DNA of 32,000 nt from Polynucleobacter sp. MWH-UH19D (GCF_040409795.1 NZ_CP099571.1:1713439-1745438); one strand, 5' to 3'; numbered from the stretch's first letter, positions 1-23,686 are shown. The notes: generated by a model from the sequence alone, not told the origin. Numbers and translations are program-made.

Positions 1-30
1 AGAAACGGTACACACCTTGCGCACAGAATT

Positions 31-47
31 TGTCGTTTTAAACGACA
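31..47. repeat. 17-bp palindrome copy P1 (TGTCGTTTTAAACGACA, centre T)
   Basis: Perfect palindrome read directly; lies 3 nt beyond the stop of the minus-strand ORF 51..812. Confidence 0.95.
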
Positions 48-50
48 TTT

Positions 51-812
51 CTATCCCACCTTAACTTCATAAGCCTCTTTGTAAATTGGCTTAAGAACTC
101 TTACCAATGAATCTACATCCATTGCGGCTAAGTTGGATCTACCGCCCAATGTATCAACTTTCATCATGAAATTTCTAAAATTATCCCTCTTGAAAGGCGT
201 ACCAGATGTGTAGGCTTCATCAGTAATTTTAAGAATGGCGGTTGTGACATTAATTGCATTTGCTGAACTATTTCTCTCTAAAAGAGATGATCGATAGTCA
301 CTATTGAAAAATAGAATTTCAAAAACCTTATCGACAGAGAAAGCTGGTATGTTTTTAGCCATATATCCCATCCACCACAAGCGAGAGATAGCGTTATCTC
401 TCATGCGACCACGGACTCCATTGGCAAACCAGTGACTTGAGATGTGATTCTGAATCTTTTCTTCGCTTGATGATTTGAATGGCCATCTTTCGTTTACATA
501 TCCTTTAAACAAGGAGAAACATAAAGTAACCCATAATCTTTCATCGGTTGCCTGGGCGGGTGTTAGTTCAGGCAAAATTTGAAGAATCAATTTACAGTTT
601 TCGGTATCTCCATTTAATTCCTGAGTTGCCCCCTTTGGCATCACCAGAGTAACCTCAGTATTAACTTTGTAATTTGTTGTCACAAGAGACAAATGCAATT
701 CATCACACAAATCATCAAATGACAGTTCCAGTAATGCTGGATTCGCCAAGAGAGATCTCTTGAGCTTTAGTACGCTCTCAGTTTTTAAAACGCTATATAA
801 GTTATCCGACAT
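51..812 (-). CDS. Hypothetical protein, last gene of the methyltransferase/GHKL operon
   Basis: 253-aa ORF whose start overlaps the upstream gene by 11 nt (translational coupling). No motif I can name; contains W-rich segments (DERLWVTL, ISRLWWMGY). Confidence 0.75.
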   Translation of the reverse strand: MSDNLYSVLKTESVLKLKRSLLANPALLELSFDDLCDELHLSLVTTNYKVNTEVTLVMPKGATQELNGDTENCKLILQILPELTPAQATDERLWVTLCFSLFKGYVNERWPFKSSSEEKIQNHISSHWFANGVRGRMRDNAISRLWWMGYMAKNIPAFSVDKVFEILFFNSDYRSSLLERNSSANAINVTTAILKITDEAYTSGTPFKRDNFRNFMMKVDTLGGRSNLAAMDVDSLVRVLKPIYKEAYEVKVG

Positions 813-1632
813 TTCTAATCAACCTTTGTACGCCATATTTGGCAACTAGTTTTTGTGAATTTATGCAGAGTTCATTGAAATCACTCTCTTCGCTAATATG
901 CACACCGAGAGTTTCGAGCTTTAACTTCAAGGCCCTTACCCACTTATATCCATCAGCGTCTTCATTTTTAATGATGTATTCCAAGGCTGCATGTATACAG
1001 TCTTTATATACAGACATTGCCAACATAGGAGCCTTATCCCGCTCCTCCCTACATACATCCCAAACATGTCGGAATTTTTTACCCATCAAAATGATGATCA
1101 TGTCTTGCTCAAGACTAAAGCGATAAGTCTCTTCTGGAATTTCAGTTGATGTCTCAACCCTAACCAATGATTCAAACTGCAATTTATCAAATTCAATGTA
1201 TCGAATTTGCGGATCATCGATTGCCATAATGTCACCCGTTTGAAGTGCGAATGGCTCTTCGCCAAACTCTTCATTCAAGTCTTCAGATTGAAAACTTTGA
1301 ATATTCTGGGAAACAATAACCAAAGGAGTAAACGTAACTTTTCCATATAACTGGCCCGTCTCAAAATCGATTTGCCCATCATTGCCAACTAAAAATACTT
1401 TTCTAAATAAAGTGTCGGAGCAATGGACATCAATTGCATAAGATGCCTTCTTGGCTACAATCAACTTTTGAATGTCATCGTTAGATAATAAAAAGCTATA
1501 GTCGAGAATGACATGCTCTGCTGGGCCCGCCATCTCCTTACGTGTATCCATCGTTGATTGAAACTCCGAGTCTAGATAATCATCACCTCGACCCAAAATT
1601 GGATATGGAAATGCCTTAATTATTGACTTCAT
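802..1632 (-). CDS. Hypothetical protein, third large gene of the methyltransferase/GHKL operon
   Basis: 276-aa ORF overlapping both neighbours (17 nt and 11 nt). No recognisable catalytic motif. Confidence 0.75.
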   Translation of the reverse strand: MKSIIKAFPYPILGRGDDYLDSEFQSTMDTRKEMAGPAEHVILDYSFLLSNDDIQKLIVAKKASYAIDVHCSDTLFRKVFLVGNDGQIDFETGQLYGKVTFTPLVIVSQNIQSFQSEDLNEEFGEEPFALQTGDIMAIDDPQIRYIEFDKLQFESLVRVETSTEIPEETYRFSLEQDMIIILMGKKFRHVWDVCREERDKAPMLAMSVYKDCIHAALEYIIKNEDADGYKWVRALKLKLETLGVHISEESDFNELCINSQKLVAKYGVQRLIRNVG

Positions 1633-3529
1633 GTGCCTCAGCCTCTATCGCAAAATCTACAGTCTTATCCGCAAAGGTTACTAATACATATTCCCTTTGC
1701 CCGCTAATTAGTTCAACGTCTATCGCAGTGACTGGCTTGTTATTAACTATCAAGCTAATCGGCTCACTTCCAATCTCACCAGATTTTTTAAATCTAATCG
1801 ACGCCAAACCTGTTATAGGAGAATCAAAGTAAATATAGGCTTGGTTAGAACCTGTCGCCCGCATCCTCAAGTTTTCTAACTTCTGATAATTTTTGGGTAG
1901 CCCTCCATGCGTCGGAGAAGATGGCCCAACAATCTTTTTACCCCCTTTTGGATCTGGCAAGTTGCCCCCCTTACCTTTTCGCTTCTTATTGCCGCCTCTA
2001 AGGCCACGCCCATCCATTTCTTCAGGGTCGCCATCACCCGCTTTGGGTTTATCTGAAGGAGTCGGTTTTGGCTTAAATGAGTAGTTTCCATTAGCTATCT
2101 GAATTGAAGCACCACGCTCTAATGTGCCACTACCTTCTTCTGGATTCTCAGAGATTTCAGAAAAAAGATCTTGGAGCTCATCTACAGTCACGCGATCTGT
2201 GGATGAATACTCTGCAAAACGTTTAAGTAGATCCCTTACAGCATTAGAAAATGTGTAATATTTTTTTTCGGCTTCTTTACGTTTTTGTAAATTGTCAATC
2301 CGATCAAATGCAAAATTATTATGCTCGGGATTTTCAAGTGTTTTCAGGGTTTCAGACCCATCCCCAGTTACACAAACAAAGAAATCAAAAGGCTTCAAAT
2401 TTGGAAATCTCTGCAACGCCGGTGCGGATCTTGTTATCAACATTCCATTTTCGCGAGCAATCGCTACTGAACGCCCTTCAACATCTTCATTCATCCTTAT
2501 GTACCAATCAATTCTTCCGAATTTAGGTATCTGTTGCTCGCCCTTATGAGTACTATTAACAACGGTTTCAATTGCCTGGAAACAATCTAACAAATAATCT
2601 TTATTAACCTCATCAAACTCTTGGCTCAATCTATCTTTGTAGTACTGATACTTTTCTTCGATATTTTGAGAATTTAATTCCTCGTCTTCACCAATCTTGA
2701 CGATTAAACTTCCTTTACGAATTGCATAGAAAAAGTTTGCTATTGCAGTAATAACAATAGAAGGATACGAATTCAAATTAAAAATAGTATGTGGAACAAA
2801 AATACTTGTACCTGTATTTTTTGAGAACTTTTCTCTAATATCTATTGCCCATTGCGGTATATCTAAGCCATCCAATGGAAGGCAGCCCGCAGGTATTCCA
2901 TAAAAACCCGTTCCTTGAGTCATTTCATGTTCAGTTTTGTTGTAAGACTGAAGGATGCTCTTACCCTGAAACCTATAAACGTGCTGATTATTTTGCTCAA
3001 TTTTCGTCAAATAAAAGAGTGCGCGAACATTGCTATTTGCAAAAGGTGCTTTAGAACCATGTCCAAATGACCCCAATGATGAAGCTGAAGTCTTTTGACT
3101 TAAGCCTGCACCCTTAGTCAAAGCGAACCATGCTCCATTAGGCCCGCCAATTGGGCCAGTTAATCCAGTCGTATTACTGTCGTGTATGCACAAAAAATTA
3201 ATTTTCTCTTCATCATTAATTAGTTTGATTGCGCGATCATAAAAATCAACAGCAGGATCGAGGTTTTGTTTCTTAGCAGTAGCTTTTGCTTGAACAAGAT
3301 GCTCCTCAAGCTCCGATACCTCTGGAACATCTTTTTTATCGATGCTAACTATATTGAATGAGACTGTAACTGGTTCAGTTCTCATCAATCCTGCATCTAA
3401 GCTGTTTTGAACAATTTCTCTCACGAGAGATGAAAGTCGATGCCCTTTAAAAGTGTCTATCCCAGAATCATTAAACCCTGCGGCTAGACCCCCTTGGTTA
3501 TCAGGAAAGTACCATTTCGCCTTTGACAT
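1616..3529 (-). CDS. GHKL (Bergerat-fold, MORC/Hsp90/MutL-like) ATPase with a Gly/Lys/Pro-rich linker and a C-terminal beta-rich domain
   Basis: N-box EIVQNSLDA (ExxxNxxD), HDSNTTGLTG (DxGxG-like) and GSFGHGSKA (GxxGxG lid) near the N-terminus. 637 aa; start overlaps the methyltransferase stop by 29 nt. Confidence 0.8.
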   Translation of the reverse strand: MSKAKWYFPDNQGGLAAGFNDSGIDTFKGHRLSSLVREIVQNSLDAGLMRTEPVTVSFNIVSIDKKDVPEVSELEEHLVQAKATAKKQNLDPAVDFYDRAIKLINDEEKINFLCIHDSNTTGLTGPIGGPNGAWFALTKGAGLSQKTSASSLGSFGHGSKAPFANSNVRALFYLTKIEQNNQHVYRFQGKSILQSYNKTEHEMTQGTGFYGIPAGCLPLDGLDIPQWAIDIREKFSKNTGTSIFVPHTIFNLNSYPSIVITAIANFFYAIRKGSLIVKIGEDEELNSQNIEEKYQYYKDRLSQEFDEVNKDYLLDCFQAIETVVNSTHKGEQQIPKFGRIDWYIRMNEDVEGRSVAIARENGMLITRSAPALQRFPNLKPFDFFVCVTGDGSETLKTLENPEHNNFAFDRIDNLQKRKEAEKKYYTFSNAVRDLLKRFAEYSSTDRVTVDELQDLFSEISENPEEGSGTLERGASIQIANGNYSFKPKPTPSDKPKAGDGDPEEMDGRGLRGGNKKRKGKGGNLPDPKGGKKIVGPSSPTHGGLPKNYQKLENLRMRATGSNQAYIYFDSPITGLASIRFKKSGEIGSEPISLIVNNKPVTAIDVELISGQREYVLVTFADKTVDFAIEAEAHEVNN

Positions 3530-4520
3530 TTTCTTCCTCTAATATTGTTTGAATAATTTTTTTAAATATTTCATCTGCTACATCTGTACAAATTGCATTT
3601 CCGATCATTGAAAGTTTTGAGCTTTCTGAAATTCCAGCTGGAAACTCAAATTCCTTCTTTTCAATGCATTGCAACCTCATCAACTCATCCACACTTAATT
3701 TACGAACACCAAAGTCATCGACTAAAAAAGGCACGTTATGGCCACCACCGCCCATATTGGCGGTTAATGTAGGGCAAACATTTTCAGGACATGAACGAGC
3801 ATCCACACGTCGAATTTGAAAGAGCCTATTTGTCCCATCCAATTCGGCGTTTCTTCTAATCATCCTTGCATATTTGTTCTCTTCATCAAGATAGAGTCTT
3901 GCTTCGCTTCTTTTATCTTTGTTGATGTATTTCCATAGATTTTTTTTACCCTTTTTTACTTCTGGAAATATGAACTTATTTTTCTTAAAATATTTTGAGT
4001 GTGTAGCAACTATGAATAATCTCTCTCGTCTTTGTGCTGTATCCCCGATTTCATAGCTATCCAATATTTGGGCGTTATTAATATTGACCCAGTAACCGGC
4101 CTTTCTAAGTTCATTGATTACGACTCGCAATCTTGCCCCGCCATCAAATAACTTCAAATTTGGAACGTTTTCAAGCAATAACACTTTTGGAGGGTTTGCC
4201 ATTTCCCCGCAAATTCTTGGAATCTCAAAAAACAACTTCCCACGCTCGTCATCAAAACCTAGATTTTCACCAGCCACTGAAAATGATTGGCAGGGAAACC
4301 CCGCAGACAAAATATCTATAGTTTCATTTAACTCGGGGAACTCCGATGGACAAACTTCTCTTACATCCCCCATAAACACAGTAGATGATGGGAAGTTGTG
4401 CCGTAGCGTAAGACAACAAGCATCATCCATTTCGTTTATAAAAACGGTTTCAACGCCGTTTCTTTGGGCAGCAAGAACAAATCCCCCCAATCCGGCAAAA
4501 AGAGCTACATGTCGATACAT
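3501..4520 (-). CDS. DNA (cytosine-5) methyltransferase
   Basis: Canonical C5-MTase motifs: FAGLGG (motif I), GFPCQSFS (motif IV, catalytic Cys), ENV (motif VI), QRRERLFIV (motif VIII) and C-terminal GNA (motif X). Confidence 0.92.
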   Translation of the reverse strand: MYRHVALFAGLGGFVLAAQRNGVETVFINEMDDACCLTLRHNFPSSTVFMGDVREVCPSEFPELNETIDILSAGFPCQSFSVAGENLGFDDERGKLFFEIPRICGEMANPPKVLLLENVPNLKLFDGGARLRVVINELRKAGYWVNINNAQILDSYEIGDTAQRRERLFIVATHSKYFKKNKFIFPEVKKGKKNLWKYINKDKRSEARLYLDEENKYARMIRRNAELDGTNRLFQIRRVDARSCPENVCPTLTANMGGGGHNVPFLVDDFGVRKLSVDELMRLQCIEKKEFEFPAGISESSKLSMIGNAICTDVADEIFKKIIQTILEEENVKGEMVLS

Positions 4521-4537
4521 TCAAAAAACCTTTAATT

Positions 4538-4786
4538 CTATTTTTTAGACTTATTTTTAAAGGTAAATGCTACCTGGCTTTCAGCTGAACCTGACTTATA
4601 TCTCTGTTTTGCGTTTTTCATTTCAGACTCAAGGGCATCAAACATCTCTTTTACATGCTCTTCGCTGTATGAATAATTTCGCGTATCACTTAGGTTTCCA
4701 ATAAGCCTAATTCGATTCATAGCTTCTGATACCCTTTTCTGGGCCAGGCGCTCAAACTTCTCATACTTCTCAGTATCTTTAGTCAT
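4538..4786 (-). CDS. Small helical protein, first gene of the methyltransferase operon (possible controller/regulator)
   Basis: 82-aa ORF with a GGAAGGA Shine-Dalgarno just upstream, 17 nt upstream of the methyltransferase gene on the same strand. Confidence 0.6.
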   Translation of the reverse strand: MTKDTEKYEKFERLAQKRVSEAMNRIRLIGNLSDTRNYSYSEEHVKEMFDALESEMKNAKQRYKSGSAESQVAFTFKNKSKK

Positions 4787-4901
4787 ATTTTTCCTTCCAG
4801 TGTTACTACAAATTTGATATATTTCTGTAATATATCATAAAATTATACTTAGATATAGAAATATTCATAATATATTTTTGCAATATTAAGGATATAAGTA
4901 C

Positions 4902-5204
4902 ATGAAATTATTACCTTTTTTCACAATACTATTTGCAACATTCGGGGCATATGCTCAGCCTTACAACCTAAATAGCTCCCCATACAACATGGAGAACTCG
5001 CCCTACAACATGGAGAACTCGCCCTACAACATGCGAAATAGCCCTTACAACATCGAGAACAGTCCATACAACTTAAATTCAACAAATGGGGTTTACGACA
5101 ATTCTGGCAATCGCATTGGTTATGAAGTTAAAGCCCCAAGTGGGGTTACAAACTATTTTGACAATAGCGGAAACAGGATTGGGTATACCCCAGCAAAAAA
5201 ATGA
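4902..5204 (+). CDS. Secreted small repeat protein (SPYN heptad repeats plus two DNSGNRIGY repeats)
   Basis: AAGGA SD; signal-peptide-like N-terminus MKLLPFFTILFATFGAYA; six PYN[LMI]xNS heptads encoded by 21-bp tandem repeats. Confidence 0.7.
   Translation: MKLLPFFTILFATFGAYAQPYNLNSSPYNMENSPYNMENSPYNMRNSPYNIENSPYNLNSTNGVYDNSGNRIGYEVKAPSGVTNYFDNSGNRIGYTPAKK
4958..5084 (+). repeat. Six tandem 21-bp coding repeats (cc[ct]tacaacatggagaactcg-like)
   Basis: Read directly; two adjacent units are identical (5001-5021 matches the preceding unit) and the outer units are degenerate. Confidence 0.85.
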
Positions 5205-5440
5205 TTGCATCCCTAGTAATTGCTATTGCTTTGGCGACAATCAAGCCCGAACCCGTCTTGATACGTAGCGCAATTGATCTTTCAAGAATCATTGGACTAC
5301 CAAGAATGAAGTCTTTTGATAAGCATATTTTGAAAACTGTCTACTTAAATGAAATGGATTCAAGTCAGACCTATCAATCCAATACAAGACGAGAATTTTT
5401 TAATAATTATTTCAGAATAAGTGCAACAAGAATTAGGTAA
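5201..5440 (+). CDS. Hypothetical small protein with a hydrophobic N-terminus
   Basis: ATGA start/stop overlap with the upstream gene; same-strand tight spacing with 5450..5794. Confidence 0.4.
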   Translation: MIASLVIAIALATIKPEPVLIRSAIDLSRIIGLPRMKSFDKHILKTVYLNEMDSSQTYQSNTRREFFNNYFRISATRIR

Positions 5441-5449
5441 GGAGAGAAG

Positions 5450-5794
5450 ATGCGTGACTATACATACATAGATGGCTATCGATTCACAATCTGGAACATA
5501 TATCGTAGCAAACGCTTTGATATTGACCGTCTAGATATAAATTTTGCTGATAAAGAGAAGCCTAACTTTGTCAGAGGATTGAGGGTGGTAGATCACAACG
5601 AATCGGAAACTTATTTACTTCATGGAGGAGATGCTGACAATCTAAGCTACAGCCTGTGTTACCTTCATCATGAGAACAAAGAAAATATTCCAGATTATTT
5701 TGATGAATACCTAATTCAAGCCACTTCCAAAAAAGAATATCTTGTCCATAAATTATTTGAAGAAGAGAAACCATTAGAAGTTGCCGTTCATTAG
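5450..5794 (+). CDS. Hypothetical protein
   Basis: 114-aa ORF with a strong SD (AAGGAGAGAAG before ATG). Confidence 0.65.
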   Translation: MRDYTYIDGYRFTIWNIYRSKRFDIDRLDINFADKEKPNFVRGLRVVDHNESETYLLHGGDADNLSYSLCYLHHENKENIPDYFDEYLIQATSKKEYLVHKLFEEEKPLEVAVH

Positions 5795-5806
5795 CCCTTC
5801 AATAAA

Positions 5807-5823
5807 TGTCGTTTTAAACGACG
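5807..5823. repeat. 17-bp palindrome copy P2 (TGTCGTTTTAAACGACG, centre T)
   Basis: Lies 12 nt after the stop of 5450..5794 and directly abuts the stop of the minus-strand mini-ORF. Confidence 0.95.
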
Positions 5824-5994
5824 TTATTTGCGCTTTCGATTTCTACGCTCAAACTCAATAGCCCCGTCCAATATCGCTTTTTGTTTCTCAGCCTCTTTAT
5901 GACGATTAATTAAGTCTTTGCCTGTAATGACCGATTTGTCATTTAGCAGGTCATCTAAAGTCTTTTTAATCTTCTTCGATTCGCTTGTGAGCAT
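5824..5994 (-). CDS. Possible 56-aa basic/helical mini-protein (MLTSESKKIKKTLDDLL...ERRNRKRK)
   Basis: Hand-translated ORF below the 60-aa cut-off of the track. It fills most of the 207-bp space between palindromes P2 and P3. No clear SD. Confidence 0.3.
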   Translation of the reverse strand: MLTSESKKIKKTLDDLLNDKSVITGKDLINRHKEAEKQKAILDGAIEFERRNRKRK

Positions 5995-6030
5995 TTTTAA
6001 ATGCTAATAAAGACTTGGGGTAATGTCTAC

Positions 6031-6047
6031 TGTCGTTTTAAACGACA
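6031..6047. repeat. 17-bp palindrome copy P3 (centre T)
   Basis: Perfect copy; it overlaps the stop codon and last three Val codons of ORF 6038..7015. Confidence 0.95.
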
Positions 6048-7015
6048 ACTTTAGACTTTCTTTTTCGACTTACACGCAATCTCAAATTAATATAAAACTT
6101 TCTTATGCGAATTAGCCAATTAAGCAGATGAAATAAGGCTTTTGGGAATACATTATCCAAGAAGACAAGCAATATCAAGCTATGTACAAGTAATAAAAAA
6201 TCACTTCCTATTAGATTTCCAAGATACGTATCCTCATCAACTGGCAGCATCATCCAACAAAAAATTGCCACGACTACTGCAAAAAGAATAATTACTCTTT
6301 TTGAGGCTTTATATCCAGCAATTTCTAAAAAATCCGTGCCAGTCACCTTAAGACTATTTTTGGAATAGCCGTCAAAGTAAGTCATTCTCTCTAAACTTTC
6401 GTCGAGAGTTCTTCCAAAGCATCCTTCCAAAAGGAATTTGACGGAATTTATCAGCACATCTAATAGCTTGGTAATAAAACCTGAAACAAAAGCCTTCGAT
6501 CTCAGGCCAATCCCTTTAACAAGATGCACTGAATCAATATGAGCCTCAAATAAGGTAACTAAAATTTTTACGCCTGGAACCAGCTTGTATGCATCATCTA
6601 CAAAGCAGTCCTTCTCTGAATCATAAAAATAAGACCCAATTAAATCCAAATCCATTGGTTTTGGAGTAGAAAAACTTATGGCAACAGAATCTTTAGTGGG
6701 GCAACTAGGATCATCATAGTCATAGTCAATATTTTTAGTCCTATATTTACTCATTACCGCAATACGAAATCTAAGCGGTATGTACCTATCTCCTTTTAAT
6801 TCAAACCTATTCTCATACACGGCCCAAATAACGGCTATGTTGTCTGGATTTCCCTTCTTATCCTTTGCTGGCTTGTATCTAATATCATTGGGATAATTTT
6901 TTTGAATCGAAAATCCGACCTTAGCATCGGTTAGCAACGTAGGGTCATCAAAGCCTGCGAAATTAATGTCGCCAAACTTATCTAAAAATTCTTGGGAATT
7001 TTGAAGGTATGCCAT
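6038..7015 (-). CDS. Hypothetical membrane-anchored protein (soluble N-terminal ~230 aa plus two C-terminal TM helices and a basic tail)
   Basis: 325-aa ORF; hydrophobic stretches VIILFAVVVAIFCWMML and FLLLVHSLILLVFL near the C-terminus. Confidence 0.65.
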   Translation of the reverse strand: MAYLQNSQEFLDKFGDINFAGFDDPTLLTDAKVGFSIQKNYPNDIRYKPAKDKKGNPDNIAVIWAVYENRFELKGDRYIPLRFRIAVMSKYRTKNIDYDYDDPSCPTKDSVAISFSTPKPMDLDLIGSYFYDSEKDCFVDDAYKLVPGVKILVTLFEAHIDSVHLVKGIGLRSKAFVSGFITKLLDVLINSVKFLLEGCFGRTLDESLERMTYFDGYSKNSLKVTGTDFLEIAGYKASKRVIILFAVVVAIFCWMMLPVDEDTYLGNLIGSDFLLLVHSLILLVFLDNVFPKALFHLLNWLIRIRKFYINLRLRVSRKRKSKVVV

Positions 7016-7104
7016 AGCCTAATTATGAGCGGCATTTAGAAATGATGCTGTAATTTTTATCCTGCATTTTCTGGTTGCCCAACTCTACACACCGAAATTA
7101 AGCT

Positions 7105-8397
7105 ATGTTTTTCGCCACAAAAAACATGCTTAAAGAAACAGAAGTGCTTGCCCTTTTCTTTCAAAGCGCCTCTACCTCTGAAAAATCACCCCAACTCAAA
7201 TACCTAGAAAACTTAGCTACTGGCAAGCTAGTACATATGAGGGATGGCAACATCACTTTGTATAAGCGAGAGCGCAGTAAACAGTGGCAAATGCGCTTTA
7301 GGCTTTATGACAAAAAGTGGCACAGAGTCAGTACAGGCTATGAAGATCTGGAATACGCCAAAAAGAAAGCTGGCGATATTTACGATAGAGCCCGCTTTAT
7401 GGAAGAGCTGGGATTGCCACCCCTCAATAAACGCTTTGATTCAGCTGCAGAGTCAACCAAGATAGAACTACAAGGTGATTTAGATAATGGCGTAGGCAAA
7501 AAGATCTATGTAGATTACATCGCAGTAATTGATAACTACCTGATTCCCTTCTTTGGCAAGAAACACTTAACTAACATTAACCACCAAGATATTGCTGAAT
7601 ATGAAGTATGGCGAGCAGACAAGATGAAACGCAAGCTCATGCGCTCAACCATGATGACGCACTTCTCCGCATACAACAGAGTGTTTGATTCAGCAATCAA
7701 GCGTGGCTGGCTAAGCGATAAACACGCCGTACCTAGACTGGGTACTAAAGGGGAGAAAAGCACTCCGAGGCCAGCCTTTACTAGAAAAGAAATTGACTAC
7801 TTGCTGGAATTCTTAAAAACCTGGAGTCAAGGCGGCAAAAATCAAGAAGCTCACCAAGGCAGGCTATTGCTTCGCGATTACATCGAAATATTGATGGCCA
7901 CAGGAATGCGCCATGGTACAGAAGCATTTAACATCCAATGGCGCCATTTAGAGTGGCATACAGATAAGAGCGTTAGATACTTACGCATATGGGTGAATGG
8001 CAAAACAGGCGCTCGCTGGCTAATTGCAAGACACGAAGCTGTTCCAGTAATAGAGCGACTTAAAGCTCGCTTTACAGAATGGGATCACTTAACGCTTGAT
8101 CAATTGCTTGAAGAAAAGCGTGAAGAGTTTGTATGGCGACATCCTAATGGTGAGCGCCCATATGACTTTGTGAGCAGCTTTAAGTGGCTTATGAAAGACT
8201 CTGGATTATTGCTATCGACTACAGGGCATAAGCGCACCATGTATAGCTTCAGACATACCTACGCTACCTTTAGCTTAGTGGAATGGGGCATGGATATTCA
8301 TACGCTAGCAAAGCAAATGGGCACTTCCGTACAAATGCTGGAACGCTTTTACAGCAAACTAACTGCAACGCTAGCAGCTGAGAAACTAGCGGGATAG
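7105..8397 (+). CDS. Tyrosine recombinase / phage-type integrase
   Basis: Catalytic-domain signatures: ATGMRHGTE (Arg I), SFRHTYAT (H-x-x-R) and ERFYSKL (Tyr nucleophile region). The start is uncertain; an internal Met at ~7237 is possible. Confidence 0.85.
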   Translation: MFFATKNMLKETEVLALFFQSASTSEKSPQLKYLENLATGKLVHMRDGNITLYKRERSKQWQMRFRLYDKKWHRVSTGYEDLEYAKKKAGDIYDRARFMEELGLPPLNKRFDSAAESTKIELQGDLDNGVGKKIYVDYIAVIDNYLIPFFGKKHLTNINHQDIAEYEVWRADKMKRKLMRSTMMTHFSAYNRVFDSAIKRGWLSDKHAVPRLGTKGEKSTPRPAFTRKEIDYLLEFLKTWSQGGKNQEAHQGRLLLRDYIEILMATGMRHGTEAFNIQWRHLEWHTDKSVRYLRIWVNGKTGARWLIARHEAVPVIERLKARFTEWDHLTLDQLLEEKREEFVWRHPNGERPYDFVSSFKWLMKDSGLLLSTTGHKRTMYSFRHTYATFSLVEWGMDIHTLAKQMGTSVQMLERFYSKLTATLAAEKLAG

Positions 8398-8533
8398 GAA
8401 CCATTTAAAATGGCTCTTGCATAGTTAATCAGGTAAAACTTAATTCAGATTGATCAACTGTAAAAATCAGCGATTTTGAATCAAATGACCGAATTATTGA
8501 GTAGTCAAAATCAAGTGGGATCTAAAAAAGTAG

Positions 8534-8797
8534 TTAAAGCACAACTTTCTGTGCGCTTAATTTTTTGATCTTAGCTTGAGCTTTTTGAATTTGTTGCGCT
8601 TTACGCTCTGTATCCAATGCTTGCTTAGCAATTTGAGCATTACGCTTAAGTGAGTTAATGCGGGCTTGTGAAGGCGTCAATGGTTTAGTAGGTTTGAATT
8701 CGTAAAAGCGCATACGATTATTTATATGCGCCTTTACATGACCACTACTTACCAAATCCAGCACGAACGGCACCACTGGCTTGCTCAATTTGAGCAT
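8534..8797 (-). CDS. Hypothetical small basic protein
   Basis: ORF with a GGAGAG SD before the ATG at 8797; overlaps the upstream gene by ~53 nt. A shorter form starting at 8713 (MRFYEF...) is an alternative. Confidence 0.45.
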   Translation of the reverse strand: MLKLSKPVVPFVLDLVSSGHVKAHINNRMRFYEFKPTKPLTPSQARINSLKRNAQIAKQALDTERKAQQIQKAQAKIKKLSAQKVVL

Positions 8798-17588: not shown

Positions 17589-17629
17589 TTTGTAGGCAAA
17601 TTACCCATTTTGGGCAGTTTGCCTACAAA
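17589..17629. promoter_or_regulatory. 12-bp perfect inverted repeat (TTTGTAGGCAAA-N17-TTTGCCTACAAA), candidate operator
   Basis: Read directly; lies in the divergent promoter region between the Sel1 gene and the HTH regulator gene. Confidence 0.5.
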
Positions 17630-17657
17630 CCTGTTTTTTTATGAGTATTCTCAAGTC

Positions 17658-18092
17658 ATGGATAAAGAAGTTTCTTTAAAACTCAGCGGTCTTTTATTTG
17701 CAATAAATGATCACTACATCAACCATTTGATTCGGATTTATCGCTTATTTGAAGGAGATATTGAATGTTGCATTGTGCTTGGCGAAATTGCCCATCACAA
17801 TGTACAAAACGTTTATTCCGAGCTAACCGAAGAAAGATTAATGCTTAGTGAGGTAGCTACTAAGTACCGGGGAAGTAATGCTCACTCAATTAGCCTATCA
17901 ACCGGGATCCCCAGAGAAACAGTTAGACGAAAAATTAGAAAACTCGAAGAAATGGGATTTATACAGCAAGATGAGAAAAAACAACTTCGTATTACTAACC
18001 TGCCGCCTATCAAGCTAGAAGAGTTCTCCATGGAGTCTTTAGGTTTATTTATGGGTCTAGTTGACCGACTAAAAAAGCAAGATTATTTATAG
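17658..18092 (+). CDS. Winged-helix/HTH transcriptional regulator
   Basis: HTH-like segment ISLSTGIPRETVRRKIRKLEEMGFI. The first in-frame ATG is at 17658; the track start 17610 is TTG inside the inverted repeat. Confidence 0.65.
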   Translation: MDKEVSLKLSGLLFAINDHYINHLIRIYRLFEGDIECCIVLGEIAHHNVQNVYSELTEERLMLSEVATKYRGSNAHSISLSTGIPRETVRRKIRKLEEMGFIQQDEKKQLRITNLPPIKLEEFSMESLGLFMGLVDRLKKQDYL

Positions 18093-18101
18093 GATGACGC
18101 T

Positions 18102-18275
18102 TTGAATTCTTATGAAATACTTTCAATTGAAAATGCTGGCGGTAAATACTGGGTAGTTACTTATAAGTTAAGTAATGGCCAAACCGAGATTGAAACTATT
18201 GACGCCTTAGACCATCATGAGGCATTTGTGAAGTTTCGCAATCTGATGATTGAACAACAAAAAGCTCGAAAGTAA
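18102..18275 (+). CDS. Possible 57-aa protein (TTG start)
   Basis: Hand-translated: (M)NSYEILSIENAGGKYWVVTYKLSNGQTEIETIDALDHHEAFVKFRNLMIEQQKARK. AGGA lies 7 nt upstream of the TTG. Confidence 0.3.
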   Translation: MNSYEILSIENAGGKYWVVTYKLSNGQTEIETIDALDHHEAFVKFRNLMIEQQKARK

Positions 18276-18287
18276 TTACTAGTTTTT

Positions 18288-18386
18288 TGTCGTTTAAAAC
18301 GACACTCTGTTACACACCCGCCCAAATCGGTCTTAGACCCTTGTATTAGCTGGTGAATTGATTAGTGCGATCTATTACCACTCCGA
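18288..18386 (+). repeat. Composite ~100-bp element B (17-mer P8 at 18288-18304, centre A)
   Basis: Same architecture as element A; the first 32 nt and the ATTAGTGCGATCTATTACCA block are nearly identical to A. Confidence 0.85.
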
Positions 18387-18398
18387 TAATGACTTGCT

Positions 18399-19220
18399 TT
18401 ATTTAAGTCTTAATATTCGTATAGCCCCACTCAATACTAAAAATCCAATGGCTAAGCCAATAATCCAGTCGGGAACTGGACTGTTAAACCAAGCAACCAA
18501 TACACCAGCAATGATGACACCCAAATTCGCCAAAACATCATTAGCAGAGAAGATATAGCTTGCCCGCATATGAACGCCATCGTTCTTACGCTTAGATATC
18601 AAGAACAAGCAGGTCACATTGACAGCTAACGCCAACACAGAAATCCAAATCATCGTATTGGCTTCGGGTTCGGCACCAATATAGATCTGATAGCCTGATC
18701 GCCAAAGAGCGCCTACGGCTAAAAATAACTCAACAACGCCTGCTAATTTCGCGGCCTTTAATTTATTAGAGGCAGCTTTTCCAACAGCATATAAAGCAAC
18801 TCCATAGACTGCCGCATCAGCAAACATATCCAAGGCATCAGCAATAAGTCCCGCCGACTCTGCCAACCAACCAGCAATGATCTCTACAAAGAACATGGCT
18901 CCGTTAAGCACCAAAAGCCAAATCAAGACTTGAAGCTCTCTTGCTGTTTCTTCTGTATCTTTAGGCCGAATGGGCACAGAATCAACAGATTTATTGCTCT
19001 GAATGCTTGCCCCAAAATTTAACGGCTCTAATTTTGCTAATACATGATTAGGCTCTTCGGAGTGACAAATCACCACTTTGCGATTAGGAATATCAAAATT
19101 CATTGAATGAATTACCAATGAACCCAAGACCATCCTAATCATTTGCTCTTCAGAGGGGCAATCCATAGCCGGCACATGAAATGTTGTTTCAACTACAAGT
19201 TGGGATTGTTTTTCTTTCAT
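18399..19220 (-). CDS. Cation diffusion facilitator (CDF) transporter with an N-terminal HMA-like domain and no C-terminal cytoplasmic domain
   Basis: Six TM segments. TM2 has DALDMFAD and TM5 has SANDVLAN (a D-D/N-D metal site). The ORF ends right after TM6, and the N-terminal ~95 aa look ferredoxin-like. Confidence 0.75.
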   Translation of the reverse strand: MKEKQSQLVVETTFHVPAMDCPSEEQMIRMVLGSLVIHSMNFDIPNRKVVICHSEEPNHVLAKLEPLNFGASIQSNKSVDSVPIRPKDTEETARELQVLIWLLVLNGAMFFVEIIAGWLAESAGLIADALDMFADAAVYGVALYAVGKAASNKLKAAKLAGVVELFLAVGALWRSGYQIYIGAEPEANTMIWISVLALAVNVTCLFLISKRKNDGVHMRASYIFSANDVLANLGVIIAGVLVAWFNSPVPDWIIGLAIGFLVLSGAIRILRLK

Positions 19221-19264
19221 ATATTCGGAATGTATAGGATTTCATAATACTTTCATACAAGAAT

Positions 19265-19273
19265 TGCTATAAT
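19265..19273 (+). promoter_or_regulatory. Extended -10 promoter element (TGcTATAAT) for the riboswitch/exporter transcript
   Basis: TG-n-TATAAT lies ~7 nt upstream of the predicted start of the riboswitch P1 helix. Confidence 0.45.
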
Positions 19274-19279
19274 TGACAC

Positions 19280-19390
19280 GTCACTAGGGAGTAGCCTCTC
19301 TTCTCTACAGAAGATGGCTTACATCAACATACTTGAGCTTCTAGCTTATGGTGTAAGCGGTTTAGATACTTGGCAAGACTTTTGACTACA
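19280..19390 (+). promoter_or_regulatory. yybP-ykoY (manganese) riboswitch aptamer
   Basis: Conserved blocks AGGGAGTAGC (19286-19295), CAACATAC and TTGGCAAGAC (19370-19379). A closing GTCA...TGAC P1 helix is present, and the element sits upstream of a UPF0016 gene. Confidence 0.8.
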
Positions 19391-19432
19391 AACACTTACT
19401 TAGGCTGTGGGTGCGTTGTAGTCATTTGTTTA
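19384..19432 (+). terminator. Riboswitch expression-platform terminator candidate
   Basis: GACTACAA (19384-19391) pairs with TTGTAGTC (19416-19423) and is followed by ATTTGTTT. The 5' arm overlaps the 3' strand of aptamer P1. Confidence 0.45.
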
Positions 19433-19457
19433 TGTCACAGCCTAGAGGACTATCAAA

Positions 19458-20030
19458 ATGGATTCACTCTTAATCTCCACTGGCGTTGTGGCTCTTGCCG
19501 AGATGGGCGATAAAACCCAGTTACTGGCATTTATTCTTGCGGCTCGCTTTAAAAAGCCTGTTCCGATTATTTTGGGTATTCTTGCGGCAACCATCATCAA
19601 CCACGGCTTGGCTGGCGCATTAGGCGCCTGGATTACAGCAATGGTCAACCCTGAAGTATTGCGCTGGATATTAGGCGCCTCATTTATTGGTATGGCTATT
19701 TGGACTTTGATCCCAGACAAGATTGAAGAAGAGGAAACGCAGGTTGCTAAACACTTGGGCGTATTTGGAGCAACCTTTATCACTTTCTTTTTAGCAGAGA
19801 TGGGTGACAAGACTCAATTGGCTACTATCGCCTTGGCCGCTCACTATGTCGCTCCTTTAGCCGTTGTTGTAGGAACGACTTTAGGAATGCTCATTGCGGA
19901 TGTACCAGCAGTATTTGTAGGCAATAAGTTCGCCAAGAAGATTCCGATGAAGCTGGTTCACTCTATTGCGGCCGGCATCTTCGCAGTAATGGGCGTACTC
20001 ACATTACTTGAAGTTGATAAATTATTTTAA
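19458..20030 (+). CDS. UPF0016 / GDT1 (TMEM165) family cation (Mn2+/Ca2+) transporter
   Basis: Two E-x-G-D-K-T-Q motifs (AEMGDKTQL twice) in a 190-aa six-TM protein. Confidence 0.9.
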   Translation: MDSLLISTGVVALAEMGDKTQLLAFILAARFKKPVPIILGILAATIINHGLAGALGAWITAMVNPEVLRWILGASFIGMAIWTLIPDKIEEEETQVAKHLGVFGATFITFFLAEMGDKTQLATIALAAHYVAPLAVVVGTTLGMLIADVPAVFVGNKFAKKIPMKLVHSIAAGIFAVMGVLTLLEVDKLF

Positions 20031-20039
20031 GGAGGCGTT

Positions 20040-20390
20040 ATGACTTGGATTATCACCAAATACTTACTGACAGCCGGAATGGTTGTATTCATTAGTGAAG
20101 TTGCCAAGCGAAGCGATAAGTTAGGTGGATTCATTGCGGCATTGCCCTTGATGACATTACTTACTCTTACTTGGCTATTCATTGAGAATCAATCGGAAGA
20201 GAAAATAGCAAACCACGCTTATTACACTTTTTGGTATGTGATCCCGACACTACCGATGTTTTTACTATTTCCCTATTTGCTACCAAGACTAGGTTTTTGG
20301 CTCACTATGGGAGCAAGTGTTGTGGTGACAGTTATTTGTTTCGGGCTCTTTGCCTTATTGATGAAAAACTTTGGGGTTGAACTGTTGTGA
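20040..20390 (+). CDS. Small membrane protein (DUF3147-like)
   Basis: 116 aa with four hydrophobic segments, 9 nt after the UPF0016 gene. Confidence 0.6.
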   Translation: MTWIITKYLLTAGMVVFISEVAKRSDKLGGFIAALPLMTLLTLTWLFIENQSEEKIANHAYYTFWYVIPTLPMFLLFPYLLPRLGFWLTMGASVVVTVICFGLFALLMKNFGVELL

Positions 20391-20395
20391 TGATT

Positions 20396-20494
20396 TGTCG
20401 TTTTAAACGACAATTCAATACACACCCACTAGATCACACTCTAGCTTCTTGATTTGCTTGGTGAAATAATTAGTGCGATCTATTACTACTCCGA
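20396..20494 (+). repeat. Composite ~100-bp element C (17-mer P9 at 20396-20412, centre T)
   Basis: Shares the 17-mer, ATACACACCC and ATTAGTGCGATCTATTAC blocks with A and B. The middle differs but keeps a short hairpin (CTAGA-N6-TCTAG). Confidence 0.8.
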
Positions 20495-20516
20495 GAAAAG
20501 CCTTAAGTCGCAAAAT

Positions 20517-21410
20517 CTATTTAAATAAAACATGAGCGGCGCCAAAAATAAATTCCTCAAACTCTCTCTTATTCCACGAGATATCAGCTCCGCCATTTAT
20601 TAATCTATGCTGCATATTTGCACAGAACAATTTAGAAGAGTCGACTCTTTTAAGCCAATCAATACAATTTATTACTGCCTCAGTGTAGGTGCTTGTATTG
20701 AATAACTCGTCTGGGACGTTACTTAACATTCCCTCAATAAAGTATGAAGGCGCACTACCAATATTAATAATTTTCTGTTCAACTAACTTTTTTCTTAGGT
20801 TTTTAAAAATTCTAATCACATGCTTCAACATTCCAAGAGTTCTTTTGTTTTTTTCTACTAGATAATCCTTGTGAAGCTGAGGAAAGTTAACAATATGAGT
20901 GCCATCTTTTTTATAAAAACTAATTCCCTCAAGATAATCATCTGGTTTCATTGGATCAAAAGAAAAATATTTTCGGTGCTTGATTGCGACTAATACATCA
21001 GCTTTGCGACGATTTCCTTTGGGTGATATTTGTATGGCCTTCGAGCCAATTACAACCTCAGAATCGAATCTTGCTATCAATAAATTAACTACATCACCTC
21101 TAAAATCAGAATATTTATATGCCGCACTAATAGGAAATGCGGCTTGAAATTTATTCTTTTGATTATCAGAAATTAGGCTTAAATCATATGTAAATGCGGA
21201 ATCAAGTCGAATGATGATGTCTACATCACTCTCTCCAATGACATTTGTGTCATTTGCATAAGATCCCTGTAAAAAGATCTTTGTGGCTTTTGATTGATAG
21301 GCTGCATTTCTATCCTCAAGGACGCCTCTAATAGTCGAATATGTCTCCTTTGATGTTACCTGGGCGCCTATAGAAGACATAGACTCCAACTCTAACTCTG
21401 AAATTGGCAT
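20517..21410 (-). CDS. CD-NTase/SMODS-like nucleotidyltransferase (CBASS cyclase candidate)
   Basis: Pol-beta NTase signature QGSYANDTNVIGESDVDIII (GS...DxD) and a third acidic residue in KADVLVAI. SD GAGGGAG lies inside the end of the patatin gene. Confidence 0.7.
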   Translation of the reverse strand: MPISELELESMSSIGAQVTSKETYSTIRGVLEDRNAAYQSKATKIFLQGSYANDTNVIGESDVDIIIRLDSAFTYDLSLISDNQKNKFQAAFPISAAYKYSDFRGDVVNLLIARFDSEVVIGSKAIQISPKGNRRKADVLVAIKHRKYFSFDPMKPDDYLEGISFYKKDGTHIVNFPQLHKDYLVEKNKRTLGMLKHVIRIFKNLRKKLVEQKIINIGSAPSYFIEGMLSNVPDELFNTSTYTEAVINCIDWLKRVDSSKLFCANMQHRLINGGADISWNKREFEEFIFGAAHVLFK

Positions 21411-21420
21411 TTCGACTCCC

Positions 21421-22356
21421 TCATAAATTCAAGGCTCTTAGGGCCACTTCATATTTTCTAAAGGAGTCTCGACCAAATTGAAATAATAAGTTCAATTTCT
21501 TGATATCAGACTCCAACAGGTCAACAGCTAAAGCACCCTTAGTTGAAGACTCATTAATTCTTACAATCGGGACATTTTTGAATATCAAATTCGTCAACTG
21601 CTCCATAGAGCGGGTATTCATATTCAAGGTTTTTTTAAGTAGCCTCTCTAAGGTCCAAATAAATATCATTCTCTGATACCAAGGCTTTATCGGCTCTATA
21701 TAGTCACCAACTCCCACACTTACAACACGCAAATCGAATTCAGAGTAATTAAGGGGGCCTACTGCATCACTGATTGAAAAAAGAGTCGGGTTGTTTGCGA
21801 TGTATCCACCGTCTATTAGCTCCCATGTAAGGCCATCATCCGCCTGCACTACTTTTCTCTCAAACAATGGATACGCCGAACATGATGAAACTACAGCATC
21901 AGCCAAAGAACACCCAAATCCAGGCTTAAAACTGGCAGTCATACCGTGCGCCTGTTCTAGGTTTGACTTAAAAATCATCGGCTTCTCTTCCAGCCACTTT
22001 GACGCAACAATACCCAGCTTAACTTTTAAATCTGAAACGGTGTAATGCCCAAATAACTCATTCGCATATAACTCCAACTTTTGAGTTCTTCCATTTGAAG
22101 TTTTTTGGGACATTATTTCTGGAATAAGGCGCCTGTATTGATCAACGATCTCACTTACAGACTTACCAAGACCAAGCATGGTTGCAATAATTGCACCTGT
22201 ACTGGTTCCATAAATTAGATCAAAGTGCAAACCAAGGGGTTTATCCCCTAAAGCTGCCTCAAGCTCTGAAAGTACCCCGAGGGTATACATGCCCTTCGAC
22301 CCTCCACCATCGAGGCTAAGAATCTTGCATAGGGGCTTCTGAGGGGATGTATTCAC
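21421..22356 (-). CDS. capV: Patatin-like phospholipase (CapV-like CBASS effector)
   Basis: Oxyanion DGGGSKG, nucleophile GTSTG (GxSxG) and DGG(Y) Asp motif. GTG start; directly upstream of the NTase gene, as in capV-dncV. Confidence 0.8.
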   Translation of the reverse strand: MNTSPQKPLCKILSLDGGGSKGMYTLGVLSELEAALGDKPLGLHFDLIYGTSTGAIIATMLGLGKSVSEIVDQYRRLIPEIMSQKTSNGRTQKLELYANELFGHYTVSDLKVKLGIVASKWLEEKPMIFKSNLEQAHGMTASFKPGFGCSLADAVVSSCSAYPLFERKVVQADDGLTWELIDGGYIANNPTLFSISDAVGPLNYSEFDLRVVSVGVGDYIEPIKPWYQRMIFIWTLERLLKKTLNMNTRSMEQLTNLIFKNVPIVRINESSTKGALAVDLLESDIKKLNLLFQFGRDSFRKYEVALRALNL

Positions 22357-22382
22357 ACCCTCATCTTATATTTTTTAGAATC

Positions 22383-22399
22383 AGTCGTTTTAAACGACA
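22383..22399. repeat. 17-bp palindrome copy P10 (AGTCGTTTTAAACGACA, centre T)
   Basis: Lies 26 nt upstream of the patatin start codon; it is the last copy before the island/core junction. Confidence 0.9.
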
Positions 22400-22565
22400 C
22401 CTCATGCCGCTACCCTCCGCTCTGAGCCATATGGTTACAGGGTTTTTTCCAGCAAACCCTTATTCTTCGGTACTTTGCAGGCGGTGTGTAGCACGGCGAA
22501 AACCATGGTTTTCTAAGTGTTTGATTTTATTGGGAAAAGGGTCGGCAACCTAAGAACCTTGCGAG

Positions 22566-22604
22566 TTATGATTCCGTCGCTCTAACCAACTGAGCTAATT
22601 CGCC
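22566..22604 (-). pseudogene. 5' half of a tRNA gene with anticodon CAU (Met/Ile2 type), truncated in the anticodon loop
   Basis: The minus strand reads GGCGAAT-TA-GCTC-AGTTGGTTA-GAGC-G-ACGGA-ATCATAA. The expected TCCGT, T-arm and ATTCGCC acceptor strand are absent. Confidence 0.6.
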
Positions 22605-22672
22605 GAAGGTGTGATTGTAGCAAATCCGCCTCATTCTGTAACCGCAAAGCCCATAAACCGTAATATAGGCAC

Positions 22673-22993: not shown

Positions 22994-23016
22994 TGTAATT
23001 CTTTGGAATCGAGCTA

Positions 23017-23628: not shown

Positions 23629-23631
23629 TAT

Positions 23632-23663: not shown

Positions 23664-23686
23664 AATTTCCTCCAGACTAAAGAATC

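Follow-up and report, generated by a model that had tools for sequence, protein, structure and literature searches.

Palindrome copies, cargo and core of the island

The window analysed here is a 32,000-nt stretch of DNA from Polynucleobacter sp. MWH-UH19D (GCF_040409795.1, NZ_CP099571.1:1713439-1745438), and the subject of this study is a 17-bp palindrome that recurs throughout the island occupying its left part. Sequence comparisons show that the palindrome is real and specific to a family of elements; it is probably of the cassette-junction kind, with a mechanism that we can only propose. In a pattern search GTCGTTTNAAACGAC is matched exactly at nine places (32, 5808, 6032, 14231, 15467, 16693, 18289, 20397 and 22384), as against 0.00 expected by chance from 100 dinucleotide-preserving shuffles; GTCGTTTWAAACGAC likewise has 9 exact copies within 31–22399 and 0 in 22400–32000. 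This agrees with the initial annotation of the stretch, which listed nine intergenic copies close to gene ends and none in the 9.4 kb of core DNA to the right: all nine lie between open reading frames (ORFs) or overlap a stop codon. Its description of the site as a perfect 17-bp palindrome applies to seven copies, those at 5807 and 22383 having one outer mismatch each. When up to three mismatches are allowed there are 11 copies, comprising the seven perfect ones, the two with an outer mismatch and two degenerate ones in coding sequences, where only one had been reported. The first of these (12225–12241, + strand; CGTCGTTTTGAACGACA, 2 mismatches) encodes VVLND in the variable N-terminal tail of a 257-aa protein; the other (10343–10359, + strand; 3 mismatches) encodes DVLND inside the gene of a 188-aa recombinase and may be coincidental. 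As first described, six copies have T at the centre and three have A (14231, 15467 and 18289; 17-mers starting at 14230, 15466 and 18288), but the polarity that this base was proposed to confer is not conserved at homologous positions.

Copy 1 (31–47; TGTCGTTTTAAACGACA, perfect) lies 3 nt 3' of the DUF6339/PDC-M33C stop codon and forms the innermost end of the left attachment (att) arm; its left flank (1–30) matches the arm beside an intact tRNA-Met in L204, L266 and L259 (related loci are given by L numbers throughout). Copy 2 (5807–5823), with its one outer mismatch (...CGACG), is situated in the convergent gap between the genes for a 114-aa and a 56-aa protein, and the perfect copy 3 (6031–6047) overlaps the stop codon of a 325-aa gene. 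The end of the conserved element core is marked by copy 4 (14230–14246, perfect, centre A), the position of which is matched in L266 at 12462. Copy 5 (15466–15482, perfect, centre A) lies between the MFS stop codon and the start of a 110-aa gene, copy 6 (16692–16708, perfect) is 24 nt upstream of the MFS start, and copy 7 (18288–18304, perfect, centre A) falls in a convergent gap. Copy 8 (20396–20412, perfect) follows the gene of a 116-aa (BV97_02767-like) protein by 6 nt, and copy 9 (22383–22399; one outer mismatch, AGTCG...) is 27 nt upstream of the patatin gene, at the innermost end of the right att arm, of which 22407–22607 has 76% identity to L157 7364–7576.

Copies 4, 7 and 8 are each directly abutted by an 85-nt sequence that we call the type C extension (14247–14335 on the + strand, 18305–18392 and 20413–20500), in which the conserved blocks ACACAC(C)C and TTAGTGCGATCTATTACYRCTCCGA flank a variable middle. 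Twelve copies were found, each directly adjoining a palindrome; those outside the window are in L147, L157 (2), L188, L259, L260 (2), L262 and L266. Individual copies seem to form differing hairpins, and RNAalifold recovers only the palindrome stem as a consensus fold, the stems drawn by eye being out of register. The extension may represent either a small RNA or a structured, longer version of the site.

The genes between the palindromes fall into cargo and core. The first cargo module (51–4786, − strand) contains a candidate PDC-M33 defence system (genes C, B and A; 51–4520, − strand) beside a type II C5 methyltransferase. A second run of cargo (14420–22356) consists of palindrome-separated modules, namely DUF6803 with the 110-aa gene; MFS; Sel1 with a winged helix-turn-helix protein; a CDF gene with an Mn riboswitch–GDT1 unit and the 116-aa gene; and a cyclic-oligonucleotide-based antiphage signalling system (CBASS). 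The Mn2+ (yybP-ykoY) riboswitch identified with Rfam at 19274–19451 lies ahead of the genes for a GDT1-family exporter and the 116-aa membrane protein (19274–20390, + strand), with the CDF/HMA exporter convergent to them, and CBASS is of a two-gene form with a cyclase and a patatin phospholipase effector (20517–22356, − strand). Elsewhere the 116-aa gene occurs alone between two palindromes (L145 7428–7855). L251–L253 encode a 116-aa protein identical to the product of window 20040–20390 and lack TGTCGTTT sites; downstream of that gene (5721–6017 in L251) they have palindromes with the same outer arms, TGTCGCGAAACGCGACA and TGTCGGGTTACCCGACA. The DUF6803, 110-aa and 116-aa genes are adjacent in these three loci, whereas in the window they lie 4.6 kb apart with palindrome-bounded modules between them.

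The 8.2-kb recombinase-bearing block had been listed among the exchangeable modules, but it is instead the conserved core of a widespread element family, and its palindromes are never seen to rearrange. The core gene set recurs in many loci, of Polynucleobacter and of metagenome-assembled genomes (MAGs) labelled Methylophilaceae, Comamonadaceae, Limnohabitans and others. At its left is a 430-aa P4-type tyrosine integrase (7105–8397, + strand; profile match P4/phrog_1-like), the candidate enzyme for the tRNA-Met att site, which has homologs of 85–91% identity in tRNA-Met elements (L259, L266) and of 44–49% in tRNA-Phe elements (L286, L275, L309, L327). A perfect palindrome is found in the N-terminal coding region (WQCRFKRQ) of the integrase in L140 (5828), L234 (126), L235 (3883) and L238 (3730); this intragenic copy is confined to one closely related lineage, there is no trace of it in the integrase gene of the window, and we give it little weight. 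Next come a DUF6641 protein (8745–9182, − strand), a conserved core gene that a palindrome often follows, and a Polynucleobacter-1 RNA (RF01718; 9373–9506, + strand, Rfam) upstream of the 188-aa recombinase. This RNA motif was reportedly described in 2010; its place between DUF6641 and the recombinase is conserved in L218, L158, L140, L145 and L217 and, being inside the element core, suggests that it is a regulatory RNA of the element rather than of the host.

The 188-aa protein (10191–10757, + strand) is a tyrosine recombinase that consists of the catalytic domain only, of FimB/XerA-like size, and it is the candidate enzyme for the palindrome. It has the full catalytic set R-K-H-R-H-Y, is ~80% identical across elements of both tRNA types, is covered by Pfam PF00589 over 16–186 of 198, and has XerA-like proteins as its closest solved relatives. 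Proteins of 120 aa and 267 aa are also part of the core, as is the pair formed by the 257-aa protein and a clamp-loader-like AAA+ ATPase (12178–13665, + strand). The 257-aa protein itself (12178–12951, + strand) has 100% identity to a protein of Polynucleobacter sp. MWH-UH19D and belongs to a family of at least 564 unannotated freshwater-metagenome proteins with an invariant C-terminal AANDADG motif, and the AAA+ gene always follows it; it has no Pfam domain, no sequence relative in the PDB and, for an AlphaFold2 model of pLDDT 69, no Foldseek match. Domain and profile scans of the conserved core proteins found no helix-turn-helix repressor among them.

The island is an integrated element whose att crossover, of the ordinary kind, falls within the anticodon loop of tRNA-Met(CAT): contigs with an empty site exist, and the 5' half of tRNA-Met lies at its right junction. 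This half tRNA (22553–22607, − strand) is not called by ARAGORN or Rfam at that position; from the anticodon loop onward it matches the uninterrupted tRNA of empty-site contigs, the junction falling at about 22552–22560. Ten metagenome contigs that lack the island encode a protein identical to the first core protein at its right (22673–22993), in the order recA, DUF2878, terminator, intact tRNA-Met(CAT) on the minus strand and core gene. All ten align from window 22560 onward at 91–98% identity, and none of these contigs, which come from close relatives, has the palindrome at up to two mismatches. The left junction was placed by reference to L204, L259 and L266, in which the other end of the element consists of an intact tRNA-Met, an arm of ~120 nt and a palindrome with a flank like window 1–30. 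The outermost palindromes are thus 120–155 nt inside the att junctions, and the notion that the palindrome bounds the whole island has to be given up.

The window holds most of a roughly 22.6-kb tycheposon-like integrative element, which the 430-aa P4-type integrase presumably inserted. At the att junction (22531–22607, − strand) the 5' half of tRNA-Met is kept together with the chromosomal promoter, and the other end of the element brings a new tRNA-Met 5' half and promoter (L204, L259, L266). The usual situation is the opposite, with the 3' end of the tRNA being the part that the element restores. As expected of tRNA-integrating islands, part of the tRNA is repeated and relatives have the empty site, and in our small sample the integrase lineage follows the tRNA target. 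A fragment search and a self-comparison found no further tRNA-Met or tRNA-Phe fragments in the window.

Distribution and anatomy of the palindrome

A scan of 185,579 species genomes for TTGTCGTTTWAAACGACA returned at least 120 rows. About half of those listed are Polynucleobacter or freshwater betaproteobacterial MAGs, and the other half of the matches listed are single, in unrelated taxa and consistent with chance. Among the matches listed, 8-kb blocks of Polynucleobacter often contain 2–4 copies, and in five of the six large contigs with more than one matching block the blocks are within 24 kb of each other; this spacing points to clustering, with some uncertainty from the order in which the scan sampled. 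In an independent sample of 80 metagenome loci (600 kb) anchored on the 188-aa recombinase alone, we find 96 perfect 8+1+8 palindromes of the TGTCGTTT type, 17 of the TGTCCTTT type and 10 of the AGTCGTTT type, and any unrelated 8+1+8 palindrome occurs at most three times. The density of sites beside the recombinase is ~1 per 4.6 kb, compared with 0 in the sampled core DNA. Restriction to the island is therefore borne out as far as sampled, there being none in the core of the window and none in the ten empty-site contigs, and the palindrome is the signature of an element family in Polynucleobacter and other freshwater Betaproteobacteria. A phage origin was considered and rejected, as a 15-mer scan of viral contigs gave single chance matches and the 257-aa family has no viral-contig relatives.

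Maps of ~20 elements show the palindrome at recurrent positions: it closes every att arm on the inner side, flanks the integrase gene at both ends, follows DUF6641, the 188-aa recombinase or 120-aa gene and the AAA+ or 172-aa gene, occupies codons 16–21 of the 257-aa gene, and separates cargo modules. The intragenic site that is degenerate at 12225 in the window is a perfect palindrome in L140, L218, L158, L217, L266 and L286. In an alignment of the 257-aa proteins, VVLND is the sole conserved stretch of the variable N-terminal tail, which points to selection on the DNA of this site.

The site can also change as a set. In one tight lineage every site has the form TGTCC...GGACA, and the loci divide into 12 with C-type sites only and 48 with G-type sites only. 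The copy within the 257-aa gene is altered too in C-type elements, VVLND becoming VLLKD, and of all core proteins the 257-aa one has diverged furthest between the types, at 57% identity compared with 92% for the 188-aa recombinase. A search for the specificity protein by comparison of the two types was set aside: since the C type is a single clade, any covariation amounts to one event. The main variant, TGTCCTTTWAAAGGACA, is also found 46 nt from a standard site in the arm beside tRNA-Phe. This conserved arm of ~170 nt, downstream of tRNA-Phe or its 22-nt 3' fragment, has TGTCCTTTWAAAGGACA as its second palindrome in L130, L132, L146, L154, L219, L234, L327 and others, and some tRNA-Phe arms have a third hairpin, GCGTCGCTTAAATCGACGC.

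Information content is limited to the 17 positions, with merely a preference for A/T over 2–3 nt outside them. The centre base of the family sites is T in 59 and A in 64, and by eye we see G or C there in two instances only. There are 337 non-redundant sites at up to two mismatches: 184 are perfect, 71 have one mismatch (at the outermost base in 40), and 31 of the 82 with two mismatches (38%) are symmetric and complementary, where ~2% would be expected. With respect to genes, the median distance of 172 non-redundant sites is 8 nt from the preceding stop codon (85 gene ends) and 44 nt from the start codon that follows (53 gene starts); 17% of them are inside ORFs.

As an RNA hairpin the palindrome folds better than shuffled sequences (z = −3.3 to −4.7), but its −6.6 kcal/mol compares with −11.8 and −13.4 for two local terminators, and T-rich tails are on the strand opposite to the upstream genes. 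An intrinsic terminator was rejected because the hairpin is weak and the T-tails are on the wrong strand. The initial annotation had reached the same conclusion from the lack of a T-tract, which is roughly right, apart from three or four copies whose 3' side is T-rich on the + strand, where the neighbouring genes are on the − strand. At some copies a palindrome arm may double as a promoter box: ACGACA, resembling a −35 box, lies exactly 17 nt from TAGAAT at window 15443–15471 (− strand), the arrangement recurs in homologous flanks of L145, L157, L160, L180, L192, L194, L203, L207, L225, L228 and L239, and before the 116-aa gene of L228 and L145 TTGTCG is followed by 16 nt (the rest of the palindrome and 4 nt) and then TATAAT. 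ACGACA-17 nt-TAGAAT is observed 9 times against 2.2 expected, in ~3% of flanks; with so small a share, a general promoter element was rejected as the function of the site.

Module joints and competing explanations

Comparison of loci shows copies at module joints where the same module end is joined to differing partners and the switch falls exactly at the 17-mer. When the flanks of 117 sites are clustered, the tRNA-Phe-proximal end, present in 20 cases, is joined to 18 partner clusters across the palindrome. In blastn comparisons of the window with genome loci, many high-scoring segment pairs (HSPs) of 75–91% identity end 0–1 nt past the palindrome in both sequences. At copy 5 the HSPs to L145, L194 and L160 end at the palindrome edge (15482 for L145); at copy 6 those to L205 and L157 end 1 nt beyond it (16709), the partner there being the tRNA-Phe arm; and at copy 8 those to L180, L153, L234, L145 and L186 all end at 20412. 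The sharpest cases are two pairs of near-identical loci. L153 and L234 share 99.3% identity over 300 nt on one side of the palindrome and 24% on the other, L157 and L180 show the same pattern, and the two pairs are 99–99.7% identical up to the palindrome edge and then run into unrelated DNA.

The integrase module behaves in a similar way: the palindrome–integrase–palindrome unit differs between tRNA-Met and tRNA-Phe elements, the rest of the core being ~80% identical, and in ~20 elements it is found on either side of the core and in either orientation. Between two sites, one module is oriented one way in L153 and the other way in L180, a single inter-genome case, and no inversion was seen within the element core of the mapped elements or within a population. 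Of the 1229 synteny breakpoints considered, 5.7% fall no more than 2 nt from a site compared with 0.6% of random positions (10-fold), and 13% within 30 nt compared with 2.3%. The site is a strongly preferred junction, and far from the only one; the expectation that module breakpoints would coincide with the 17-mer is borne out only for a minority, ~6% being within 2 nt, although this is a 10-fold enrichment.

We tentatively favour the interpretation that modules are exchanged by recombination at the palindrome, the 188-aa recombinase being the candidate enzyme, and would put this at somewhat below an even chance. The 17-mer fits an element-specific, protein-recognised symmetric site that both marks and mediates module joints. 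TGTCGTTTWAAACGACA, copies of which are usually 5–9 nt 3' of a stop codon, is the standard joint of the family, closing each att arm and flanking the integrase module, the core and the cargo modules. In the proposed mechanism a protein encoded by the element would bind the symmetric site as a dimer, the best candidate being the conserved, catalytic-domain-only 188-aa recombinase acting on TGTCG arms around a TTTWAAA overlap, and any two copies would recombine, within one element or between co-resident elements. As the site is almost symmetric, whole modules could be inserted, deleted, replaced or inverted, among them the integrase module and with it the tRNA target. The distribution and conserved positions of the site, its concerted change in one lineage and the exchange junctions are observed; the acting protein, the point of cutting and the site-specific nature of the exchange, as opposed to one due to short homology, are what we infer.

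Our preference for a recombination site rests on the junction evidence together with the swapped integrase module and the concerted change of sites in one lineage, and on the centre base, which is restricted to A and T and behaves as if sites flip: A and T in near-equal numbers with G or C almost never is what flipping would produce. The 188-aa protein is preferred as the enzyme since, like the site, it is conserved across elements that differ in tRNA target. The core-site layout and module exchange originally proposed therefore survive in part, with mobile DNA, joints and partner switches all found, but most breakpoints lie elsewhere. Both tyrosine recombinases named at the outset as candidate enzymes are real, the smaller with its full catalytic set, and they remain candidates.

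Several observations weigh against a recombination site. Most breakpoints and module borders have no palindrome, and the order DUF6641, 188-aa, 267-aa, 257-aa, AAA+ is never rearranged in ~20 elements despite conserved internal sites. The 325-aa gene is situated between the palindrome at 6031 and the upstream region of the integrase with no second copy there, and in four relatives that upstream region directly abuts a palindrome. Neither the 188-aa recombinase nor DUF6641 has residues that discriminate G-type from C-type elements, more distant recombinase homologs (~48% identity: L130, L146 and L154) lack internal sites, and 17 bp is short for the core site of a tyrosine recombinase.

The main rival, a serious one although less likely, is that the palindrome is an operator or insulator, every copy of which would be bound by a dimeric protein of the element so as to silence or insulate modules; the putative binder would be the fast-evolving 257-aa protein or a small unknown protein. 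On this view ordinary recombination would give rise to exchange as a side effect, the 17-mer being the sole sequence common to all elements. Such a site would explain why conserved copies persist inside a core that is never rearranged, including two coding regions, and why most breakpoints lie away from the site. All sites of an element shift together to TGTCC, as for a protein and its site evolving as a specificity pair, and the 257-aa protein is the one that diverges most between site types (57% compared with 92% for the 188-aa recombinase). The perfect dyad symmetry, the confinement of many near-identical sites to one element and to short intergenic gaps, as in operator arrays, and the overlap of a subset with promoters (ACGACA-17 nt-TAGAAT, 9 compared with 2.2 expected, and TTGTCG-16 nt-TATAAT) are also in keeping with it. 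However, most copies come just after stop codons or in convergent gaps that have no promoter, the promoter arrangement is limited to ~3% of flanks, the conserved core has no helix-turn-helix repressor and the model of the 257-aa protein has no match. Ordinary recombination also fits poorly with 18 partners in 20 cases and two near-identical pairs that switch at the palindrome edge, given that RecA usually needs more than 17 bp to recombine efficiently.

We consider a role in the RNA improbable. In this case the palindrome would be a processing site, or a hairpin that stabilises the 3' end of each module transcript or serves to mark it, and, being a palindrome, would work from either strand. 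The median distance of 8 nt after a stop codon, the over-representation of symmetric variants that preserve pairing and folding better than shuffles (z = −3.3 to −4.7) would all suit such a role; but the hairpin is weak (−6.6 compared with −11.8 and −13.4 kcal/mol), the T-rich tails are on the wrong strand, and variants with G-U pairs or free compensation are absent, 184 of 337 sites being identical and the few variants lineage-wide. Copies also lie upstream of genes, in gene-free att arms and in 5' coding regions, and the exchange junctions would be left unexplained.

Less probable again, to the point of being very doubtful, is a role as arm-type or accessory sites of the tRNA integrases, the internal copies being relics of many small elements that inserted in tandem and no longer have their tRNA repeats. 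A palindrome does lie 30–250 nt from every att junction examined, tRNA-Met and tRNA-Phe alike, it is paired beside tRNA-Phe with the TGTCC variant 46 nt away, and tandem tRNA-Phe 3' fragments occur in arrays. Against this, the window has no further tRNA-Met or tRNA-Phe fragments, the same palindrome serves elements with integrases that are only 44–49% identical and have different tRNA targets, and internal copies are at conserved positions in the core of a single element. Finally, the alternative raised initially, a genome-wide Polynucleobacter repeat of the repetitive extragenic palindromic (REP) or bacterial interspersed mosaic element (BIME) kind that is island-specific in appearance only, is scarcely credible and, like a DNA-uptake sequence, is rejected on the available sample: the motif is present in many Polynucleobacter species and combines in mosaic fashion with other conserved sequence blocks, but the 9.4-kb core of the window and the empty-site contigs have 0 copies, five of the six multi-block large contigs among the matches listed have their blocks no more than 24 kb apart, the association with element genes is tight, and a Pfam search of 30 ORFs of the window, covering all of the island and one core gene, found no RAYT/Y1 transposase.

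If the palindrome is indeed a recombination site, it could belong to a cassette system new to description, in which tRNA-integrating islands of streamlined freshwater Betaproteobacteria are made of interchangeable modules joined at one 17-bp site, which a 188-aa recombinase would cut and rejoin; we advance this with more hesitation than the recombination site itself. Elements could then swap, invert or capture cargo, regulatory RNA, att arms and even the integrase module with its chromosomal target. With equal hesitation, such a system might be regarded as functionally an integron for whole modules, unrelated to IntI/attC or Xer/dif. In Polynucleobacter and planktonic bacteria like it, genomes are small, classical transposons are few and islands drive microdiversity; how such islands gain and trade cargo is poorly understood. 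A joint common to islands with different tRNA targets and in different genera would be a testable plug-and-play mechanism for the exchange of defence (CBASS, PDC-M33) and metal-homeostasis genes. Should the 188-aa enzyme act on it, the two would be among the smallest known pairs of tyrosine recombinase and site, and possibly a useful tool; should the palindrome be a global operator, silencing of a stoperator-like kind would exist in an element that is not a phage. In both cases the 17-mer can serve as a practical marker of these islands and their module borders in genomes and metagenomes.

Relation to known systems

We found no mention or prior description of the palindrome sequence in the literature searched, and resemblances to known systems are partial. 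REP/BIME repeats occur in hundreds of copies across core intergenic regions, compared with 0 here in sampled core DNA. Similar in layout, by analogy, are the stoperators of cluster A mycobacteriophages (e.g. L5) and the O_B sites of IncP KorB, in which dozens of near-identical short sites lie within one element, in short gaps between genes, at gene ends and occasionally inside genes. Those sites have a known binding repressor and are not reported as cassette junctions, and stoperators are asymmetric and orientation-dependent; here, by contrast, the conserved-core scans found no matching repressor.

The size and single-domain build of the 188-aa recombinase recall FimB/FimE, and symmetric sites would permit inversion, but the protein scores 41.6 bits with the invertase model PRK09870 (cut-off 221), and, in the comparison with FimB/E systems and shufflons, no invertible promoter or alternative C-termini were found. 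The pdif modules of Acinetobacter plasmids are accessory modules bounded by a 28-bp asymmetric 11-6-11 site and dependent on host XerC/XerD (PMC6449649, PMC5790767). They resemble the modules described here as discrete adaptive units (metal resistance and the like) that are bounded by one short site and shuffled between replicons. The likeness to Xer/pdif that had been suggested does not extend to the site itself, which has 17 positions and a single central base in place of the defining 28-bp 11-6-11 structure; the palindrome is symmetric, lies in chromosomal islands of several genera and is accompanied by element-encoded recombinases, and the window has no host Xer gene.

The comparison with integron attC arrays made at the same time fares similarly. 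As in an integron, short genes or groups of genes each have a hairpin-forming site a few nt past the stop codon, a tyrosine recombinase is encoded alongside, and the same cassette is found in many contexts with the junction at the site. The defining features, IntI, attC structure and cassette orientation, are nevertheless lacking. The 188-aa protein scores 36.9 bits with the IntI model TIGR02249 (cut-off 265) and 21.4 bits with PRK15417 (cut-off 435). An attC site is an imperfect hairpin of 57–141 nt with RYYYAAC/GTTRRRY, whereas here there is an invariant 17-bp perfect palindrome, and neither attC core box can be read in GTTTWAAAC. Integron cassettes are co-oriented, mostly promoterless and expressed from Pc; the modules here are on both strands with promoter-like boxes of their own and a riboswitch, and, unlike an integron, the array is inside a tRNA-integrating element.

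The known systems nearest to the island as a whole are the tycheposons and the cargo islands of Methylophilaceae, which integrate at tRNA genes, tRNA-Met(CAT) being among the reported targets (Hackl et al., bioRxiv 10.1101/2020.12.28.424599; PMC10872708). Common to all are insertion in a tRNA gene, a partial tRNA repeat, a tyrosine recombinase lineage that tracks the tRNA target, modular cargo of defence and metal or nutrient genes, and genome-streamlined planktonic hosts. Searching the two papers for 'palindrom' and 'inverted repeat' gave no reference to palindromic joints inside the islands. The present island differs from tycheposons in that the 5' half of the tRNA is retained, the crossover is in the anticodon loop, a second, minimal recombinase is present and the core is distinct. 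It adds a new member to the group of cargo islands that integrate at tRNA genes, the tycheposons among them.

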